DNA from: a virus
Taxonomy: Duplodnaviria; Heunggongvirae; Uroviricota; Caudoviricetes
Virus record (IMG/VR): IMGVR_UViG_2778261448_000005
DNA length: 36,585 bases
Direction: 5' to 3' (one strand)
Below, in pieces: positions 7,973-14,236 of the stretch. The translations under genes and the position numbers were made by a program. The first letter of the stretch is position 1, and every line of letters starts with the position of its first letter. Under the pieces are notes generated by a model. The model was not told the origin of the DNA, searched no databases, and saw only the letters and a program-made list of their open reading frames with translations.

Positions 7973-8030
7973 AGCGCGCACAAAACAGGCGAAAGCGGGA
8001 TTTAAAAATCCCGTAAACGGTTAATTAACC
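7922..8030. promoter_or_regulatory. palindromic repeats across the gpA 3-prime end and parM leader, candidate ParR operator or centromere, or origin-associated
   Basis: Two copies of cGGGATT-N-AAATCCCGTAAA (7922-7944 and 7995-8017) and a perfect 12-bp palindrome GGTTAATTAACC (8019-8030). Confidence 0.35.
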
Positions 8031-8048
8031 AACATAAGGAAAATCGAC

Positions 8049-9008
8049 ATGAAAATTTGTATCGACGACGGCTCCACCAACATCAAGCTGGCATGGACTG
8101 AGAATGGCGAACGCCGCAACGCCATCAGCCCGAACAGCTTCAAGTCGGAATGGTCTGCGCCGTTCGGTGGCATGCAGCCCGCGAACTACATGCTTGATGG
8201 CGTGCGCTATGGTTTTGATCCGGTCAGCGATCGCTTTGTCCAGACGACCGACACGCAATACCAGTACAGCGATGTGAATGTAATCGCCATTCATCACGCG
8301 CTGGTCAAATCAGGCATCACGCCACAAGAGGTGGATGTGGTTGTCACCCTGCCACTGAGCGAGTATTTCGAGACAAACGCACAGCCGGACATGGCCAACA
8401 TCAACCGCAAAAAAGCGAACGTTATGCGCTCGGTGGAGTACCAGAACGGCGAAGCATTCACTATCCGTAACGTGCGGGTTATGCCTGAATCCATTCCGGC
8501 TGGCTTTAAAGCACTGGCTGACATGAGTCCGTTTGAATCCCTGCTGATTGTGGATTTAGGCGGAACCACGCTGGATGTGGCAAAGGTTCAAGGGCAACTG
8601 GCAGGTATCAGCCAGGTGTTTTGCGATCCACACGTAGGCGTTTCCCTGATGGCCGATGCCGTACTGTCGGTGATGGCCACTAACGGTATGCGCACCAGTC
8701 ACCACATCGCCAATACCATTATCGAACATCGCCATGATGAAGCCTGGCTGCGCCAGCACATCCACAATGACGCGCATTACGCCAGCCTGATGGCGGTTAT
8801 TCGTGAAAAGGAAGAAACACTGAAACAACGCGTGATCCGCGCGCTGGCGGTTTTTTCGGGTTACGGGCGGGTGATGGTTGTCGGTGGAGGGGCGGAGATT
8901 GTGGCACCCGCTATCCGCGAAGTCTGCGGAGTTAATGCGACTTTCATCGCGGACGGGGTGCCACAGTTTGCTCTGGTTAATGGGCTGTACGCAATGGACA
9001 AGGAGTAA
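8049..9008 (+). CDS. parM: ParM/StbA-family actin-like segregation ATPase
   Basis: N-terminus MKICIDDGSTNIKLAW and downstream blocks (SPNSFK, YSDVNVIAIHHAL, DLGGTTLDV, VGGGAEI) closely parallel plasmid R1 ParM as I recall it. AAGGAAA RBS. Confidence 0.85.
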   Translation: MKICIDDGSTNIKLAWTENGERRNAISPNSFKSEWSAPFGGMQPANYMLDGVRYGFDPVSDRFVQTTDTQYQYSDVNVIAIHHALVKSGITPQEVDVVVTLPLSEYFETNAQPDMANINRKKANVMRSVEYQNGEAFTIRNVRVMPESIPAGFKALADMSPFESLLIVDLGGTTLDVAKVQGQLAGISQVFCDPHVGVSLMADAVLSVMATNGMRTSHHIANTIIEHRHDEAWLRQHIHNDAHYASLMAVIREKEETLKQRVIRALAVFSGYGRVMVVGGGAEIVAPAIREVCGVNATFIADGVPQFALVNGLYAMDKE

Positions 9009-9012
9009 ACCA

Positions 9013-9327
9013 ATGACGACACCAACCAGACGGATAAGTTTCTATCTGAAGCCCGCCGCCGTCAAGAGTGAACAGGAGGCGTGCAATTACCTCGATAGCC
9101 TACCAGCCTCCGAACGCAGCCGCGCGCAACGCGCGGCCTTTCTGGCTGGGCTAGCGCTCATAAAGCGCAACCCAGCATTTGCCTACTGGATGGCCGAATG
9201 GCCAGAGGACAACCTCCCCTTCAATACCGTTAGCATCAAGGAAACATACCAGGATAATCAGCCTAGCGGAGTTGAATGCAATTTTTATAGAATAAAAAAG
9301 AATATTCAGACCTTATTCCCAGAATAA
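9013..9327 (+). CDS. parR: ParR-like centromere-binding adaptor
   Basis: 104 aa immediately downstream of parM. N-terminal segment (RRISFYLKP ... LDSLPASERSRAQRAAFLAGLAL) resembles R1 ParR. GGAG RBS 7 nt upstream. Confidence 0.7.
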   Translation: MTTPTRRISFYLKPAAVKSEQEACNYLDSLPASERSRAQRAAFLAGLALIKRNPAFAYWMAEWPEDNLPFNTVSIKETYQDNQPSGVECNFYRIKKNIQTLFPE

Positions 9328-9375
9328 TCTGATAATTGTATGTGAACTAATAAAATACAGACCAACACATCATTC

Positions 9376-9400
9376 TGGCACCCTTGCTAACAGGGTGCCA
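9376..9400. terminator. hairpin between convergent parR and the membrane-protein operon
   Basis: TGGCACCC-loop-GGGTGCCA stem-loop in the convergent intergenic gap. Confidence 0.45.
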
Positions 9401-9410
9401 ATGTTTCAAA

Positions 9411-10253
9411 TCATGATGAAATTGCCGAAGTTTTTTTATCGTGCTGAAGTACCGCAAATGCCATTAAAACCTCAAGAGAATAGCGGCGATAATACTTAAC
9501 AAAACCATAATAAAATACTCGGGATGCAGCAATACAAAACAAGAGAAGAAAACAAAAAGGTAACAGTCTGATATTTATATCTATTAAAAAGGATAGAAGG
9601 AGCAGGAACATAAGCAACCAGACTGAAGCGAGAAAAACAAATGTAATGTTTCTACAAAAACCATACAAAGCAACATAGTTTTGCATTTTCACCTGATGAT
9701 TTTTAGAATGTTCATACACATAATGATAAGCAAGGCGAAAAAGATCGCCCCTCAAGCCCTTACGTCGATATAGCGTAGATACAGAAAAAACATTTATATA
9801 ACCATCTCGTATTTGCGGCCAAAAGACTTTAATAAGTATAGAATGCAGTGTGGTTTTATGATGTTCTGCTTTATCAAAAGCTGATACAGGAAATAAAAAA
9901 ACTCCACGAATAAAATTAACTATACTGAACTTAGTATTATGTCGTTTTATTTTCAGGGAGCTTCTTTTAGAAAACAGATAAATTGAAGGATACCCAAGTT
10001 TACTGTTCATGTATTTTTCAATTAAACAGGATGATAGAATAGATATGAAGTGACCTGAAATATATGATAGAACGATTAATGCCACATATATAAATACACT
10101 TATTATTTCTTTATATTTCAGGATATGGTTAAGAATACCTTCTATATAAACAGGGTTAATTTCAATAGAAAACAAAAAAAGGATAAACAGGAATAACCCA
10201 CCTGGAATTAGATAGCCCAAAAAGTCATAAAATGAAAACGGATTCTGTGTCAC
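9411..10253 (-). CDS. multi-pass membrane protein of unknown family, AT-rich cargo
   Basis: 280 aa, GTG start preceded by GGGGGAAG. Hydrophobic helices at both ends (about 4-5 TM). Visibly lower GC than the phage backbone. Confidence 0.6.
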   Translation of the reverse strand: MTQNPFSFYDFLGYLIPGGLFLFILFLFSIEINPVYIEGILNHILKYKEIISVFIYVALIVLSYISGHFISILSSCLIEKYMNSKLGYPSIYLFSKRSSLKIKRHNTKFSIVNFIRGVFLFPVSAFDKAEHHKTTLHSILIKVFWPQIRDGYINVFSVSTLYRRKGLRGDLFRLAYHYVYEHSKNHQVKMQNYVALYGFCRNITFVFLASVWLLMFLLLLSFLIDINIRLLPFCFLLLFCIAASRVFYYGFVKYYRRYSLEVLMAFAVLQHDKKTSAISS

Positions 10254-10292
10254 ACTTCCCCCTGTGTTACTTGTAAATTAAAGGGTAAAACA

Positions 10293-10790
10293 TTATTTGT
10301 TTTTCCGTAAAGGATTAGCTTTCCATCTTCTTACTAACCATTCGAATTCTTGATATGTAGTATCCGAATTAATGCTTTCTCTGATTGCTTTAATTAATGG
10401 CTCGGCAATATCATATGTCTCTACAACTGTTGTGTAAGATGTTCTTTTTATCATTTTTTCATCATAAATACCTTCACGAATACTTACAGCAACTCGCTCG
10501 TAAAAATTTAAAATATATTGAAATTTTCGACGCTCGGCCATTTCTTCATCTGTTATTATGCAACCATCACAAGGAAAAACATAAGAACGAAATGATTTGC
10601 CTGAACGATGCACTTGTTTCAGGGTATGCAATGACTCTATATATTGCATATCTTGCCGACTCTCAAAAAGAAAGTTGGCCGTTTGAGTTTTTTTTGCGGT
10701 ACGCACATTGTAGATAATGGTTCCAATGGCAACCAAAACGCCAAGCAGAACAATAGCATTGCTGATGATTTGTAGTGTTATTGGGTTCAT
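10293..10790 (-). CDS. single-pass membrane protein of unknown family with CDGC motif, AT-rich cargo
   Basis: 165 aa, N-terminal TM helix (ISNAIVLLGVLVAIGTIIY), then a soluble domain. First gene of a two-gene minus-strand operon with 9411-10253. Confidence 0.6.
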   Translation of the reverse strand: MNPITLQIISNAIVLLGVLVAIGTIIYNVRTAKKTQTANFLFESRQDMQYIESLHTLKQVHRSGKSFRSYVFPCDGCIITDEEMAERRKFQYILNFYERVAVSIREGIYDEKMIKRTSYTTVVETYDIAEPLIKAIRESINSDTTYQEFEWLVRRWKANPLRKNK

Positions 10791-10804
10791 CCTATTTCAT
10801 CCAT

Positions 10805-10831
10805 AAAAAAGGCGGGGAGCAAATCCCCGCC
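10805..10831 (-). terminator. intrinsic terminator reading on the minus strand, just upstream of the cargo operon
   Basis: GGCGGGGA-loop-TCCCCGCC stem (8 bp, GC-rich) followed on the minus strand by TTTTTT. Confidence 0.45.
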
Positions 10832-11438
10832 TCATTAGAGGTCAACGTAGCTTAGAAACCATCAAATTCATCATACATTTTTTTCATATCAACCCCCTCA
10901 TAGAAATCATAACCACGTTTTGTGGTTTTTGTGACGTATAAACTACATCAAAGGCAAGCCACGGTCAAATATATAGGCATGCTTACCTGCACAAAAGTGC
11001 ACAAATTTGCACAATTTTTTTGAACGACTTTTTACCCTTCCGGCCCGCATGGCGGCTGGATCCGTCAAGGATCCGTGCGTGCACAAAAAAACGCGCTTTT
11101 TCTGCGCGCAGGTGACGGGGGAACAGCCCGCGTTTCAGGGGGTAAATAGCATTCCCTGAACGATGTCGCAGAGATACAACAGAATGGCTGTATTTCTCAC
11201 GCTGAGCGTGAAAAAGACGTGAGGGCTTTTGATTTGATGAGGTGAAAGGTAAGGCCGTCAAAATCGCACTGAGACGGCGAGAACATGCAGTCAACGCGGT
11301 GGGATTGCGTAAGAGTCTGACTGTCGATGATGGCAATCAGCAGGAAAGCGTCGTGAAATTATCTGACTGATACAGGAGCTGGAGAGTCGGGGCATAAATT
11401 TTTTATGCCCCGGCGAAGCAGCAGACAAGCGAAGCGCG

Positions 11439-12485
11439 TCAGGATGTGGGCTGGGTGTCTAACAGTGCGTAAGGGTTAAAGCGGATCACCTCTTCGCCAA
11501 GCCAGTCATTGATGTGCTTCATGGCCTCCATGACAGGCATCAGCTCGTTAATTGCGTAAACCCGCGCGGCCTTCTCCACATCACCAAACGCACTTTTTTC
11601 GCCCGGCATCGCCCCCATCAGTTGCGGCGGAACGCGGTGCGCAGCCAGCACATCATCACGGGATGCCGCCTTAACATTCATGAACTCATCTTTTGCGGTG
11701 ATCTGCTGGAACGGCAAAATTTGCACCCCCTCTTTGCCCCCGTTGGGCGCATGAATGAGCACGTTTTTAAACGCACCACCACCACGTGCCCCCTGTAGCG
11801 TTTCTTTCAGGGAGTCCATGCTTTCGCGGTTTACCTGCGCTGCACCGATGTAGATGATGCACCCGGCGTGGGATCCGTTGTCGTAGTACAGTTTTCTGAA
11901 CATGTCCGCCGAATGAGAAAGGCTGGCCGAGAGTAATGCGCCAAGATATTCCGGCATGCCGTAGATTTCCTGGTTAATATCCGGATTCATCAGGTGGCAC
12001 ACTTTGCCAGGACGAAACTGGAACGCGTCCTTGCCATCCTGCACATACCACCATGATTCAAGATCGCTTCCGCGTCGCATGTATTTCGCCAGGGCGTGCC
12101 GTAATTTAAGCGGTTCGCCGAGCATATTGCTTCGAAGCTCAAGGAATGCGTTACCGAACACAAACCAGTCCAGCGCCAGCGCCGAGAAATCCTGCCGGGA
12201 AAGCAGCGGGTGCGGGATGTAGCAACCGAGTAATACATTGCGCTTAAAGTAAAGCGCAGACTGATGCCAGGACGTTTGCCGGGCAGCTCTTGCCAGACCG
12301 TACCAGTCCACCGGAGTTTCATACCACCGCCCGTTATCAGCACAGTACATATTGTCCAGCAGGTCATGCCCGGTCAGGCGATAAGGACCATCAAATGTGA
12401 ATGCACTGAGCGATGATTCTTTCCTGAGCGCATCAGCGAGATCAATGCGTGAACTCATGCGCACTTTTTTATTTTTTCTGCTCAT
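11439..12485 (-). CDS. Q: portal protein, P2 gpQ family
   Basis: 348 aa (P2 gpQ about 344 aa). Downstream of and overlapping the large terminase in the leftward P-Q operon. Confidence 0.9.
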   Translation of the reverse strand: MSRKNKKVRMSSRIDLADALRKESSLSAFTFDGPYRLTGHDLLDNMYCADNGRWYETPVDWYGLARAARQTSWHQSALYFKRNVLLGCYIPHPLLSRQDFSALALDWFVFGNAFLELRSNMLGEPLKLRHALAKYMRRGSDLESWWYVQDGKDAFQFRPGKVCHLMNPDINQEIYGMPEYLGALLSASLSHSADMFRKLYYDNGSHAGCIIYIGAAQVNRESMDSLKETLQGARGGGAFKNVLIHAPNGGKEGVQILPFQQITAKDEFMNVKAASRDDVLAAHRVPPQLMGAMPGEKSAFGDVEKAARVYAINELMPVMEAMKHINDWLGEEVIRFNPYALLDTQPTS

Positions 12486-14236
12486 CAGAACTCCATAACC
12501 GTGAAACGCTCGTTTTCTCCTTCGCCGCCAATCGGTTCGTTAATGACAGCAAGCATGGTTGCCCACGCAAGGTCGCCGTGGCTGATCCCCCTCGCGCGGT
12601 CCGTTTCGTAAGTGATAAAGCCGCCCGGTGTTTTCACTTTACGCACGGCGTTAAAGGCCGCGACCAGCTCGCGTTCGGCGCGATCGTATTCCCACCGCCC
12701 GGCACGCATTATTTGCAGCATTTTCAGTACCAGCGACCGTTTTGATGACAGCGTGAAGGTGTACGGAATAGCAGCAGGGAAAAACCGTTTCACTATCTGA
12801 TAAACAGCCTCCCCGTTCCCGCCCGTCACATCAATGCCGATGTGTTCCACGTTGTAGCGATACGTGAACTCTTCAATGACTCTGGCCTGTTCTTCAAACT
12901 CCAGCCCCTGAACGCGTCGCGTCTCCACCGTTCGAAAACGGCCACCAGGAACAGCCGGAGGAACCACCACGGACACAGCGCCGCTGTCGCCGTTGCCACT
13001 GCTGCCGTTTGCGTCATACCCAATCCATACCGGACGATTCCCCATCGGGCGGGGAGCAAAAGGTTTCCAGTCTTTCCAGTCGTCGTATCCGTCAACACCG
13101 CAGCCAATCAGGATATTCAGGTTAAATGCCGATTCCCCTTCGCGAACAAACTCACACATATAGAGATTGAGGAACTCGTCTTCGGTGTTTTCATCACGGA
13201 TTTCGTCAATATCGGTGTGTTTCCAGCCGTGATTAACCACATCTTCCAGCGTGACAATTTGCCGCCACGTCCGGTCAGGGCAGATAAGCCCGTTATGCAG
13301 CGTTTTCCAGTCCACAGAAAAACGCTGGCGTTTATGCGAGGCCTTTTTCTCGTTCCAGCGGTCGCCGTTCCAGTAGGCGTATGCCTCGTGCGTTTCGGTG
13401 GATGGCGTGGAGAAGTAGGTGCGCCGCAGTCCGCTGAGGGTTGCCATAGCGCCAGCCACCTTGCGCAGTTCAGCAAAGCGACTGACCCAGAAAAATTCAT
13501 CAAAATAAAAATTGCCCGTATAGGACTGTGCCGACGCAGCAGAAGTGCCGAGAAAATGCAGCTCTGCGCCGTTGGAGAGGATGATTTTATCGCCCCCTTT
13601 CAGCTCCACATCAACTTCAGCCGCGGCCTTCTGAATAATGCTTTTAAACTGGAACGCCTGACGACGCGACGCAGACAAAAAAATCTGGTTACGCTGGTAA
13701 GGTTGCGCCACATCGTCACGCAGCGCCATCAGCAGAGCTTCCTGTGCAAAATACCAGGTCGCCCCAATCTGTCGGGATTTCAGGATCATCCTGTTACGTA
13801 TCCCGGCTTCCCTGCAAAGTGTCAGGGAGTCAAACCAGCCCCGCTGATGCCACTCCAGCCTGCTGATGATTTTTTCCCGCAGTGCGGCAATCTGTTCCGG
13901 CGTGAAATGATTTTTGAGTTTTTTCGCCCGGCCTTTCTTTCCTGCGGCCATCACATCCGGCTGGCCATCATGCAGCTTTTTAAGCTGCCGGGTCAGCAGG
14001 TCTATTTCCTTAAAGTCACCGCCTGTTTTATTCTGTTTTTCAGTAAGCTGGATGAGGCGCGCATCGATGGACTGCGTGACACGCTGCACGGGTGGCGTTT
14101 CATCCCACTGGTCACGTTTTTTCCACGCATAAATCGTGTTCGGGTTTATTCCCATCAGACGTGATATTTCTGCGGGCGGATAACCCTGCCAGTAAAGTTG
14201 CCGCGCACGCTGGCGCACAAAAGCGTCCTGAATCAT
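12485..14236 (-). CDS. P: terminase large (ATPase) subunit, P2 gpP family
   Basis: 583 aa with a terminase-type Walker A-like segment (ILKSRQIGATWYF). Divergent from the O-N-M operon as in P2. Confidence 0.9.
   Translation of the reverse strand: MIQDAFVRQRARQLYWQGYPPAEISRLMGINPNTIYAWKKRDQWDETPPVQRVTQSIDARLIQLTEKQNKTGGDFKEIDLLTRQLKKLHDGQPDVMAAGKKGRAKKLKNHFTPEQIAALREKIISRLEWHQRGWFDSLTLCREAGIRNRMILKSRQIGATWYFAQEALLMALRDDVAQPYQRNQIFLSASRRQAFQFKSIIQKAAAEVDVELKGGDKIILSNGAELHFLGTSAASAQSYTGNFYFDEFFWVSRFAELRKVAGAMATLSGLRRTYFSTPSTETHEAYAYWNGDRWNEKKASHKRQRFSVDWKTLHNGLICPDRTWRQIVTLEDVVNHGWKHTDIDEIRDENTEDEFLNLYMCEFVREGESAFNLNILIGCGVDGYDDWKDWKPFAPRPMGNRPVWIGYDANGSSGNGDSGAVSVVVPPAVPGGRFRTVETRRVQGLEFEEQARVIEEFTYRYNVEHIGIDVTGGNGEAVYQIVKRFFPAAIPYTFTLSSKRSLVLKMLQIMRAGRWEYDRAERELVAAFNAVRKVKTPGGFITYETDRARGISHGDLAWATMLAVINEPIGGEGENERFTVMEF

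Follow-up and report, generated by a model that had tools for sequence, protein, structure and literature searches.

The DUF4760 gene of a P88-like prophage is preceded by a leader, predicted to be about 125 nt long, that encodes an 11-residue peptide and is ended by a hairpin of the intrinsic-terminator type. Comparison of homologous loci indicates that this leader is part of the DUF4760 module, and codon comparisons show that the peptide is under purifying selection at the amino-acid level. The best explanation that we can offer, which we regard as reasonably probable, is that leader and gene form a two-cistron DUF4760 operon with an internal leaky terminator that would set a high ratio of peptide to DUF4760.

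The window (the whole 36,585-nt stretch of DNA that was analysed; IMG/VR record IMGVR_UViG_2778261448_000005) is a P88-like prophage (Xuanwuvirus, Peduoviridae). P2-like phages have a cos-proximal hotspot between the replication and portal genes that holds variable anti-phage cargo (PMC9122126; PMC13586616). Within the window, the terminase gene (12485..14236, minus strand) and the portal gene (11439..12485, minus strand) lead into some 450 nt of backbone and then into the cargo, which is flanked on its other side by parM (8049..9008) and a plasmid-stability gene (PF10784; 9013..9327). The cargo carries a 165-aa DUF4760 gene (10790..10293, minus strand; Pfam PF15956, E = 1.8e-34; PHROG 2284, function unassigned) and, downstream of it, a gene encoding a 280-aa multi-pass membrane protein (10253..9411, minus strand; PHROG 12528, function unassigned) that is probably co-transcribed with DUF4760. 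The initial annotation regarded these two genes as a cargo pair. The second gene does lie downstream on the same strand, but tblastn found it confined to loci of the E. coli clade, and the pair is therefore not a conserved unit. We accordingly rejected the 280-aa protein as a conserved DUF4760 partner. Its weak PADLOC match to Csx27 (E = 1.4e-5), which runs over the membrane segments, is probably due to membrane-protein composition.

An AF2 model of DUF4760 (mean pLDDT 93) revealed an N-terminal transmembrane helix running into a helical bundle. The best fold matches of this model were to the EDS1 family, and since the model is all-helical, the match must presumably be to the helical EP domain. 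A search of PADLOC-DB 2.0 gave no significant defence match for DUF4760, the only match being PDC-S35 (E = 0.014). We found no literature characterising DUF4760, with one paper merely naming it, and our literature searches returned nothing relevant on DEFDGF, the end of the leader peptide, no prokaryotic EP-domain homologues and no mapped transcription starts that could be used for ST131.

To compare loci, we used retrieval by DUF4760 protein similarity alone, which gave 39 IMG/VR loci at 74-100% identity, and profile retrieval, which gave 59 DUF4760 loci down to 33% identity. Four distant homologues were added via the contigs that encode them, and 48 distinct upstream sequences were examined for the leader. 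These loci occupy P2-like hotspots, other prophages (L072 and L119-L126) and chromosomal sites, among them one that adjoins nrdAB-yfaE (L073) and one that adjoins an ABC transporter (L076). As the leader accompanies DUF4760 in all three settings, it belongs to the DUF4760 module and not to the phage. Among 5426 complete E. coli genomes, 289 carry the module, one of them being that of the ST131 strain JJ1886.

The terminator hairpin upstream of the DUF4760 gene

The hairpin (10833..10809, minus strand) has a 10-bp stem and a 5-nt loop by direct reading of the sequence. Its 5' arm is GAGGCGGGGA (10833..10824), its loop TTTGC (10823..10819) and its 3' arm TCCCCGCCTT (10818..10809), all on the minus strand. 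The core consists of eight G/C-rich pairs (GGCGGGGA/TCCCCGCC), from which the stem extends to ten pairs, seven of them GC. A T6 tract (10810..10805, minus strand), found both by reading and by scan, provides the U tract of the terminator, and 14 nt (ATGGATGAAATAGG) separate it from the ATG of the 165-aa ORF at 10790. The initial annotation had reported a GC-rich 8-bp hairpin with TTTTTT about 15 nt before this ATG, leaving no room for a promoter. Both points hold: the stem has 10 pairs, the gap is 14 nt here, and it measures 12-40 nt in each of about 25 homologous loci measured from sequence. Because a promoter cannot be fitted between hairpin and ATG, DUF4760 must be transcribed by read-through.

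A consensus scan placed this hairpin as the top terminator-like site within 8000-14000. The simple terminator pattern is frequent in that interval (13 occurrences against 7.7 +/- 2.9 expected), so the scan pattern alone is weak evidence. The folding energy of the hairpin was -19.4 kcal/mol compared with -8.3 +/- 2.6 kcal/mol for shuffled sequences (z = -4.3), and none of 200 shuffles was as good. Its d'Aubenton-Carafa-style terminator score was +39.5, an approximate value as ViennaRNA energies were used. In the nascent RNA of the window the stem pairs with a probability of at least 0.92, and among 11 diverse leaders the hairpin and tail all scored positive, the stem being paired in the nascent transcript with a probability of 0.86 or more. 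The element is unidirectional, the plus strand having no T run after the hairpin.

Homologous loci put the hairpin beyond chance. Citrobacter phage Shae_phiSM is 83% identical over the region and keeps both the hairpin and the ORF, there MKKVFDEFDGF; its loop and upstream sequence differ from those of the window, and its stem carries a compensatory change from G:C to A:U. Stems of wholly different sequence are found in Yersinia, Kosakonia and high-GC relatives, and replaced stems elsewhere include ATCGGAGG/CCTCCGAT, GCGGAGC/GCTCCGC and CTACCCGCC/GGCGGGTAG. Covariation statistics were modest, the stem being mostly invariant within the close clade. The U tract is T5-T9 in most homologues. A strong hairpin with a weak or absent U tract was observed in the distant loci L073, L130, L132 and L133, and partly in L072, which makes termination less certain in these lineages. 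The few distant hairpins without a clear U tract suggest that the ancestral role of the hairpin may have been in RNA stability or processing instead of termination. With a GC-rich stem-loop, an adjacent 3' U tract and a stem kept by compensatory change, the hairpin of the window is, by these comparisons, a real element of the intrinsic-terminator type; its termination efficiency and the read-through past it are predicted properties.

A conserved micro-ORF in the leader

Upstream of the hairpin we located a predicted leader promoter on the minus strand by sequence reading and conservation. It comprises a -35 hexamer, TTGACC (10968..10963), and, after a 17-nt spacer, a -10 hexamer, TAGTTT (10945..10940), with a predicted start near 10932. 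About 25 homologous loci with differing flanks share the pattern TTGAC[TCAG]-N17-TA[AG][TAG]TT at an equivalent position. The predicted promoter lies about 140-180 nt 5' of the DUF4760 ATG, inside cargo-specific DNA. The -10 hexamer is a weak match to TATAAT (3/6; T1, A2 and T6), which is why the consensus scan omitted the element; the scan instead listed a clade-specific alternative, GTCACA-18-TATGAT (10935..10906). We therefore treat the sigma-70-like leader promoter as a predicted element and infer that it is used.

The start of the RNA would fold into a 5' stem-loop, SL1 (AACCAC-AAAAC-GTGGTT; 10927..10911, minus strand), which was found by both the hairpin scan and the minimum free energy (MFE) fold. 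Homologues have stems of other sequence at this position, such as GACTAC/GTAGTC and TTCAC/GTGAA. Next comes a Shine-Dalgarno (SD) sequence, GAGGGGG (10899..10893, minus strand), whose duplex with the anti-SD has an energy of -10.2 kcal/mol; values of -6 to -11 kcal/mol were obtained in 31 of the 31 leaders analysed. It serves a mini-ORF of 11 codons (10887..10852, minus strand; ATG..TAA by sequence reading), ATG AAA AAA ATG TAT GAT GAA TTT GAT GGT TTC TAA, which encodes MKKMYDEFDGF. The second codon is usually AAA across loci. The expression signals of the two genes are asymmetric: the mini-ORF has a strong SD and an AAA second codon, whereas the ribosome-binding site of DUF4760 is weak (UGGA / UAGG) and lies within the 14 nt after the T tract. 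The mini-ORF, which sits between promoter and hairpin, was missing from the initial annotation, and none of the database records examined annotates it.

An SD-preceded ORF of 8-13 codons with a related end motif, followed by a GC hairpin, was present at 47 of 48 distinct DUF4760 loci (33-100% identity). At the sole exception, IS186 has inserted in the hairpin and parted the gene from the leader. Across loci the end motif reads [DE]-x-[FYVI]-[DEG]-[GW]-[FLV]. Every protein-retrieved locus with at least 59% DUF4760 identity carries an invariant [FY]DEFDGF-stop, and more distant loci carry CDEFEWV, RDEFEGF, EEFDGF, DDYEGF or DEYEGL, and further DVVDGF, DVIGGF, [ED]VIDGL or DTSGGL. Towards its N-terminus the peptide is free to vary. 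Among 16 distinct DNA versions that encode DEFDGF, each of the six third codon positions varies, although this sample was chosen with a pattern that fixes codon positions 1 and 2. Loci retrieved by protein similarity are free of that bias, and in all of those with at least 59% DUF4760 identity the motif does not change. Motif differences among closer relatives are confined to synonymous third codon positions. In Yersinia-type loci, DUF4760 is about 40% identical and the terminator stem is ATCGGAGG/CCTCCGAT, and the peptide, MKKFDEFDGF, keeps the motif; L127 encodes this identical peptide at about 40% DUF4760 identity. In distant lineages the nucleotides are entirely different, and the peptide motif and ORF length class are kept. 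Together, these comparisons show purifying selection on the peptide itself, and the sequence evidence says that the mini-ORF is translated. The C-terminus of the peptide may resemble the SSB tail (DFDDDIPF).

We also searched in the reverse direction with the peptide pattern, using one genome per species. This search gave 16 matches, of which 12 were related and four were unrelated matches that arose by chance. The related matches all fall within Enterobacterales: nine stand before a DUF4760 gene, one before a DUF4760 deletion remnant (Trabulsiella), and two are orphans (Xenorhabdus bovienii).

Folding predictions for the rest of the leader revealed a spacer segment, GTTGACCTCT (10846..10837, minus strand), that is anti-SD-like and is predicted to pair with the SD region. 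The resulting helix P1 (GGGGGUUGA with UUGACCUCU) appears in the MFE folds of the window and of most enterobacterial homologues, and in Shae_phiSM it carries changes from G.U to A-U. The pairing was not clearly better than in shuffled-spacer controls and the helix was absent from distant homologues, and we judged P1 a weak candidate for an SD:anti-SD switch. A small hairpin around the stop codon occurs in five sequence versions, and at two of its pairs both sides have changed; all of these come from one related group.

A proposed two-cistron operon with a leaky terminator

The features that stay constant are a short ORF with a strong SD, then the hairpin or terminator, then a DUF4760 gene with a weak ribosome-binding site and no promoter of its own. 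These match the design of mccA-mccB, for which reason we favour the two-cistron reading. On this reading, the sigma-70-type promoter at 10968..10940 would start an RNA near 10932 that bears the 5' stem-loop, the strong ribosome-binding site and the 11-codon ORF MKKMYDEFDGF. Most transcripts would terminate around 10805, where the hairpin and U tract lie, so that a peptide-coding RNA of about 125 nt would be abundant, and a minority would read through into DUF4760, with its weak ribosome-binding site, and onward into the 280-aa gene. The terminator would thus keep the peptide abundant and the membrane protein DUF4760 scarce. The anatomy of the leader and its conservation are shown by comparison of the loci; the flow of transcripts through it is what the model predicts.

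In the mcc operon, an intrinsic terminator sits between mccA and mccB; a transcript of 105-107 nt is abundant there, and one that reads through is minor (Zukher et al. 2014, PMC4231749). Both systems have a very short first cistron that is strongly translated, here by prediction (seven codons in mccA, 11 in the window), a gap before the second gene that contains an intrinsic terminator but no promoter, and a short transcript (105-107 nt in mcc, about 125 nt predicted here). They differ in that MccB is a ThiF/E1-like enzyme that adenylates the peptide, whereas DUF4760 is small, helical and anchored in the membrane and lacks any domain that resembles an enzyme. In addition, the upstream RNA of mcc blocks the terminator unless a ribosome is bound, whereas no such interference is predicted here, and the peptide sequences are unrelated.

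A more specific proposal concerns what the peptide does. It could be a trans-acting partner of DUF4760, for example a fast-turnover inhibitor or ligand, such that peptide and protein would act as a micro-antitoxin and an EP-like effector released by phage; we advance this tentatively and consider it unlikely as it stands. According to this proposal, the terminator would keep the acidic peptide of 8-13 residues (x-D-E-F-D-G-F-COOH) in large excess, and a phage that shuts off host transcription or translation would cause the peptide to be lost and the effector to be freed. The DUF4760 fold has been likened above to an EP domain, which in plant EDS1/PAD4/SAG101 senses nucleotides. Three observations are consistent with a partnership: the peptide ORF is found at nearly all DUF4760 loci (47/48), orphan peptide ORFs occur in X. 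bovienii and Trabulsiella, and the motif shifts only where DUF4760 identity falls below about 50%.

Invariance of seven residues right up to the stop codon is also what marks a regulatory arrest peptide, which would make termination conditional instead of constitutive. In this alternative, a ribosome translating xxxxFDEFDGF-stop would stall at or near the stop codon, whether by itself or because of a ligand or of translation stress under phage infection, the leader would be remodelled, the terminator would fail and DUF4760 would be induced. The seven C-terminal residues are invariant, synonymous sites vary and the N-terminus is free, in keeping with such a peptide. The peptide is also more conserved than DUF4760 itself (about 40% identity in L127), which fits a target as conserved as the ribosome, and with a ribosome on the stop codon both the anti-SD segment and the small hairpin located there would be covered. 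However, no mutually exclusive antiterminator structure was predicted, and nearly all of the leaders folded, four of them in truncated form, had the terminator in their MFE structure, as did the nascent RNA of the 11 diverse leaders at the pair probabilities given above; this is a thermodynamic prediction, with kinetic or protein-assisted alternatives outside its scope. Spacing also argues against arrest. Past a stop codon, a ribosome positioned on it shields only about 10 nt, and the distance from stop to hairpin is 14-18 nt in the clade of the window and 5-51 nt family-wide, so such a ribosome cannot generally mask the hairpin and could not do so in most lineages. The last two residues are WV or GL in distant homologues, which would be unexpected if contacts with the peptidyl-transferase centre drove arrest, and the SD:anti-SD helix, as noted, did no better than its shuffled controls. 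We therefore consider conditional attenuation through an arrest peptide the less probable reading, although still a serious rival. The initial annotation had proposed a conditional attenuator-type control that would silence a potentially toxic module, a toxicity that is conjectural; its read-through layout stands, but the predicted input is a dedicated upstream promoter followed by a conserved micro-ORF, and the antiterminator that such control would call for is not predicted.

The classical attenuator leaders trpL, pheL, hisL and pyrL share with the DUF4760 leader the order of promoter, SD, leader ORF, intrinsic terminator and gene, with no intervening promoter. Unlike them, the micro-ORF has no regulatory codon run: it holds three Phe/Tyr codons, but D, E and G are equally invariant. 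Nor is a 2:3 antiterminator predicted here, and the spacing from stop to terminator is not conserved. TnaC and SpeFL are short upstream ORFs whose amino-acid sequence is conserved to the stop and which control transcription of the downstream gene; they relieve Rho-dependent termination by masking a rut site that adjoins the stop codon. The peptide of the window is likewise conserved at the amino-acid level up to its stop, but its motif is unrelated, and the terminator here is intrinsic and lies 16-20 nt or more from the stop codon. By this spacing, the footprint of a ribosome stalled at the stop codon would not generally overlap the hairpin, unlike in a TnaC- or SpeFL-like arrangement.

We next considered whether the hairpin could belong to the phage backbone, as an insulator that ends late (terminase-portal) transcription or transcription from the cos side, in which case DUF4760 would have a leaderless mRNA or a cryptic promoter that overlaps the hairpin. 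The portal/terminase operon does point towards the hairpin on the same strand, and the P2 annotation places a terminator, tQ, after gene Q. The backbone boundary argues against this. Homology with P88-like phages that lack the cargo ends at about 10988, so that everything from there down to 9411 is cargo-specific, and the hairpin lies about 155 nt past that end. It also travels with DUF4760 to chromosomal sites and to prophages that are not P2-like. Moreover, the backbone has a terminator-like hairpin of its own between the portal gene and the leader promoter, detected by scan: GCGCGCAGAAAAAGCGCGT followed by T7 (11109..11091, minus strand), within a block that is near-identical in the window, Shae_phiSM and Entero_P88_23. 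Finally, neither the loop nor the 14 nt after the T tract is conserved as a -35 or -10 element, and the scan gave no promoter there. An insulator role is thus very unlikely.

The same observations bear on how the cargo is transcribed. The initial annotation had offered three routes around the hairpin, none of which found support. Dependence on read-through from the cos/portal side is at odds with the conserved predicted promoter in cargo-specific DNA and with the presence of the leader in non-P2 prophages and in the chromosome. Given the T7 hairpin between portal gene and promoter, read-through from the late operon is not required and is unlikely to be the principal input, and this hairpin would limit any such read-through into the cargo. 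A promoter overlapping the hairpin lacks the conserved hexamers, as described above. A mis-called start codon is at odds with the DUF4760 N-terminus and transmembrane helix, which are conserved from about residue 5, and with a Pfam match that begins at residue 12.

The 5' arm of the hairpin shares GAGGCGGGGA with P2 cosL (GGCGAGGCGGGGAAAGCAC), and we examined whether it could be a relic or decoy cos site. We rejected this candidate: a 10-mer match is close to chance, the hairpin lies outside the conserved backbone, and the P2 cosL 19-mer has no site in the window within 3 mismatches.

The least probable reading, to which we give hardly any weight, is that the mini-ORF is untranslated and the leader, conserved at the RNA level, acts either as a small RNA without coding function or as a 5' UTR with a structural role alone: the terminated RNA of about 125 nt would be compact, with a 5' hairpin and a terminator hairpin, and Rfam returned sub-threshold sRNA matches (best SorX, 19.3 bits against a threshold of 46.6, and isrP, 16.7 bits against 45), but no Rfam family reached its gathering threshold, the strong SD is correctly spaced in 31 of 31 leaders, motif variation in close relatives is synonymous only with the motif unchanged in protein-retrieved loci, and distant leaders keep the peptide motif and ORF length class with entirely different nucleotides.

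Implications for the DUF4760 family

The location of the module corresponds to the P2-like cos-proximal defence hotspot that holds old and tin, with variable cargo and a break in homology at the backbone edge; here it lies between the replication gene (followed by parM and the PF10784 gene) and the portal gene, next to cos. It differs from the known hotspot genes in that DUF4760 is absent from PADLOC as a defence protein and in that the module is also found outside prophages. The terminator is a known kind of element, and by itself ordinary. Neither Rfam nor the literature searched appears to describe the micro-ORF leader that is found across the DUF4760 family.

What the hairpin exposed is an unannotated micro-ORF whose conservation exceeds that of DUF4760 and which accompanies practically all of the DUF4760 genes that we examined. 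It provides a concrete handle on DUF4760, a family of the P2-like anti-phage hotspot, and is a further candidate for the small set of functional bacterial peptides with about ten residues. As the predicted promoter of DUF4760 lies upstream of the leader, cloning the gene with its native promoter needs about 200 nt 5' of the ATG. If the peptide does act as a partner of DUF4760, the two would constitute a two-part module of an undescribed kind that is carried in phage defence hotspots.

Separation of DUF4760 from its leader

At least three IMG/VR contigs among the related loci (L007, L011 and L014/L023) carry an insertion sequence within the terminator hairpin of the leader, at the equivalent of window 10815-10826. 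We take the inserted element to be IS186 from its end sequence, CATAAGCGCTAACTTAAGGGTTG, and the duplicated target is about GGATTTGCTCCC. The GGGG-N7-CCCC stem of the hairpin fits the known target preference of IS186. The insertion separates DUF4760 from both the leader and its promoter. Truncation of the leader near the same point was found in approximately 9 of the 289 complete E. coli genomes that carry the DUF4760 module. Among the loci compared, DUF4760 lacked the mini-ORF only where IS186 had broken the leader.

Leaders without DUF4760 were also found. Two orphan leaders, L065 and L071, both from Xenorhabdus bovienii T228, keep the promoter, the mini-ORF (encoding MKKGFDEFDGF or MKKKFDEFDGF) and the terminator, and are followed by unrelated convergent genes. 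At a Trabulsiella guamensis locus (L070), a deletion joins the hairpin's 5' arm to DUF4760 at approximately codon 113.

Deletion and palindromes at the leader promoter

One locus (L016/L020, IMGVR_UViG_3300007747_000080) has a deletion of approximately 84 nt, equivalent to window positions of about 10963-11046, which takes out the last part of the conserved backbone block together with the leader promoter's -35 region. The mini-ORF, the terminator and DUF4760 are all intact. One end of the deletion lies near the start of the P88_4B11 record (approximately window 11033), so a link to cos, or to assembly across the cohesive ends, is possible.

In many homologues, including L026, L027, L031, L037, L045, L046, L061, L063 and L066, an inverted repeat, ATTACC-N6-GGTAAT, spans the promoter spacer and the -10 region (equivalent to window 10946-10962). 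The window copy is degenerate (CTTGCC...TGTAGT). Different palindromes are found at the promoter in Xenorhabdus (ACAGGT-N-ACCTGT) and in the homologous locus L067 (TTAACC-N3-GGTTA). These palindromes look like the operators of some repressor, and we regard them as candidate operators.

Sequences flanking the module

Downstream, 39 nt past the DUF4760 stop codon, begins a gene for a 280-amino-acid multi-pass membrane protein (window 9411-10253, minus strand), with a GTG start and the Shine–Dalgarno sequence GGGAAG. The protein matches PHROG 12528 (function unknown), and also gave a weak PADLOC match (E = 1.4e-5) to Csx27, a Cas13b-associated membrane protein, which is probably compositional.

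On the opposite side, at window 10997-11016 (both strands), the backbone block adjoining the cargo contains TTGTGCAAATTTGTGCAC, a near-palindrome, and after it a third GTGCA repeat; this arrangement is kept in all P88-like loci. Directly after the portal stop codon lies a long hairpin, GGGGCATAAA-AAAT-TTATGCCCC, without a T run (window 11408-11430, minus strand). Possible roles for the near-palindrome and this hairpin are as cos or terminase-binding sites, or as an analogue of the P2 tQ terminator. In an ST131 prophage nearly identical to the window (L001, PV468777.1), an extra insert of approximately 600 nt (PV468777.1 5215-5739; approximately window 11440) separates the portal stop codon from the conserved block on the cos side. 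The insert encodes a hypothetical 174-amino-acid gene product, and its position is a second small variable spot.
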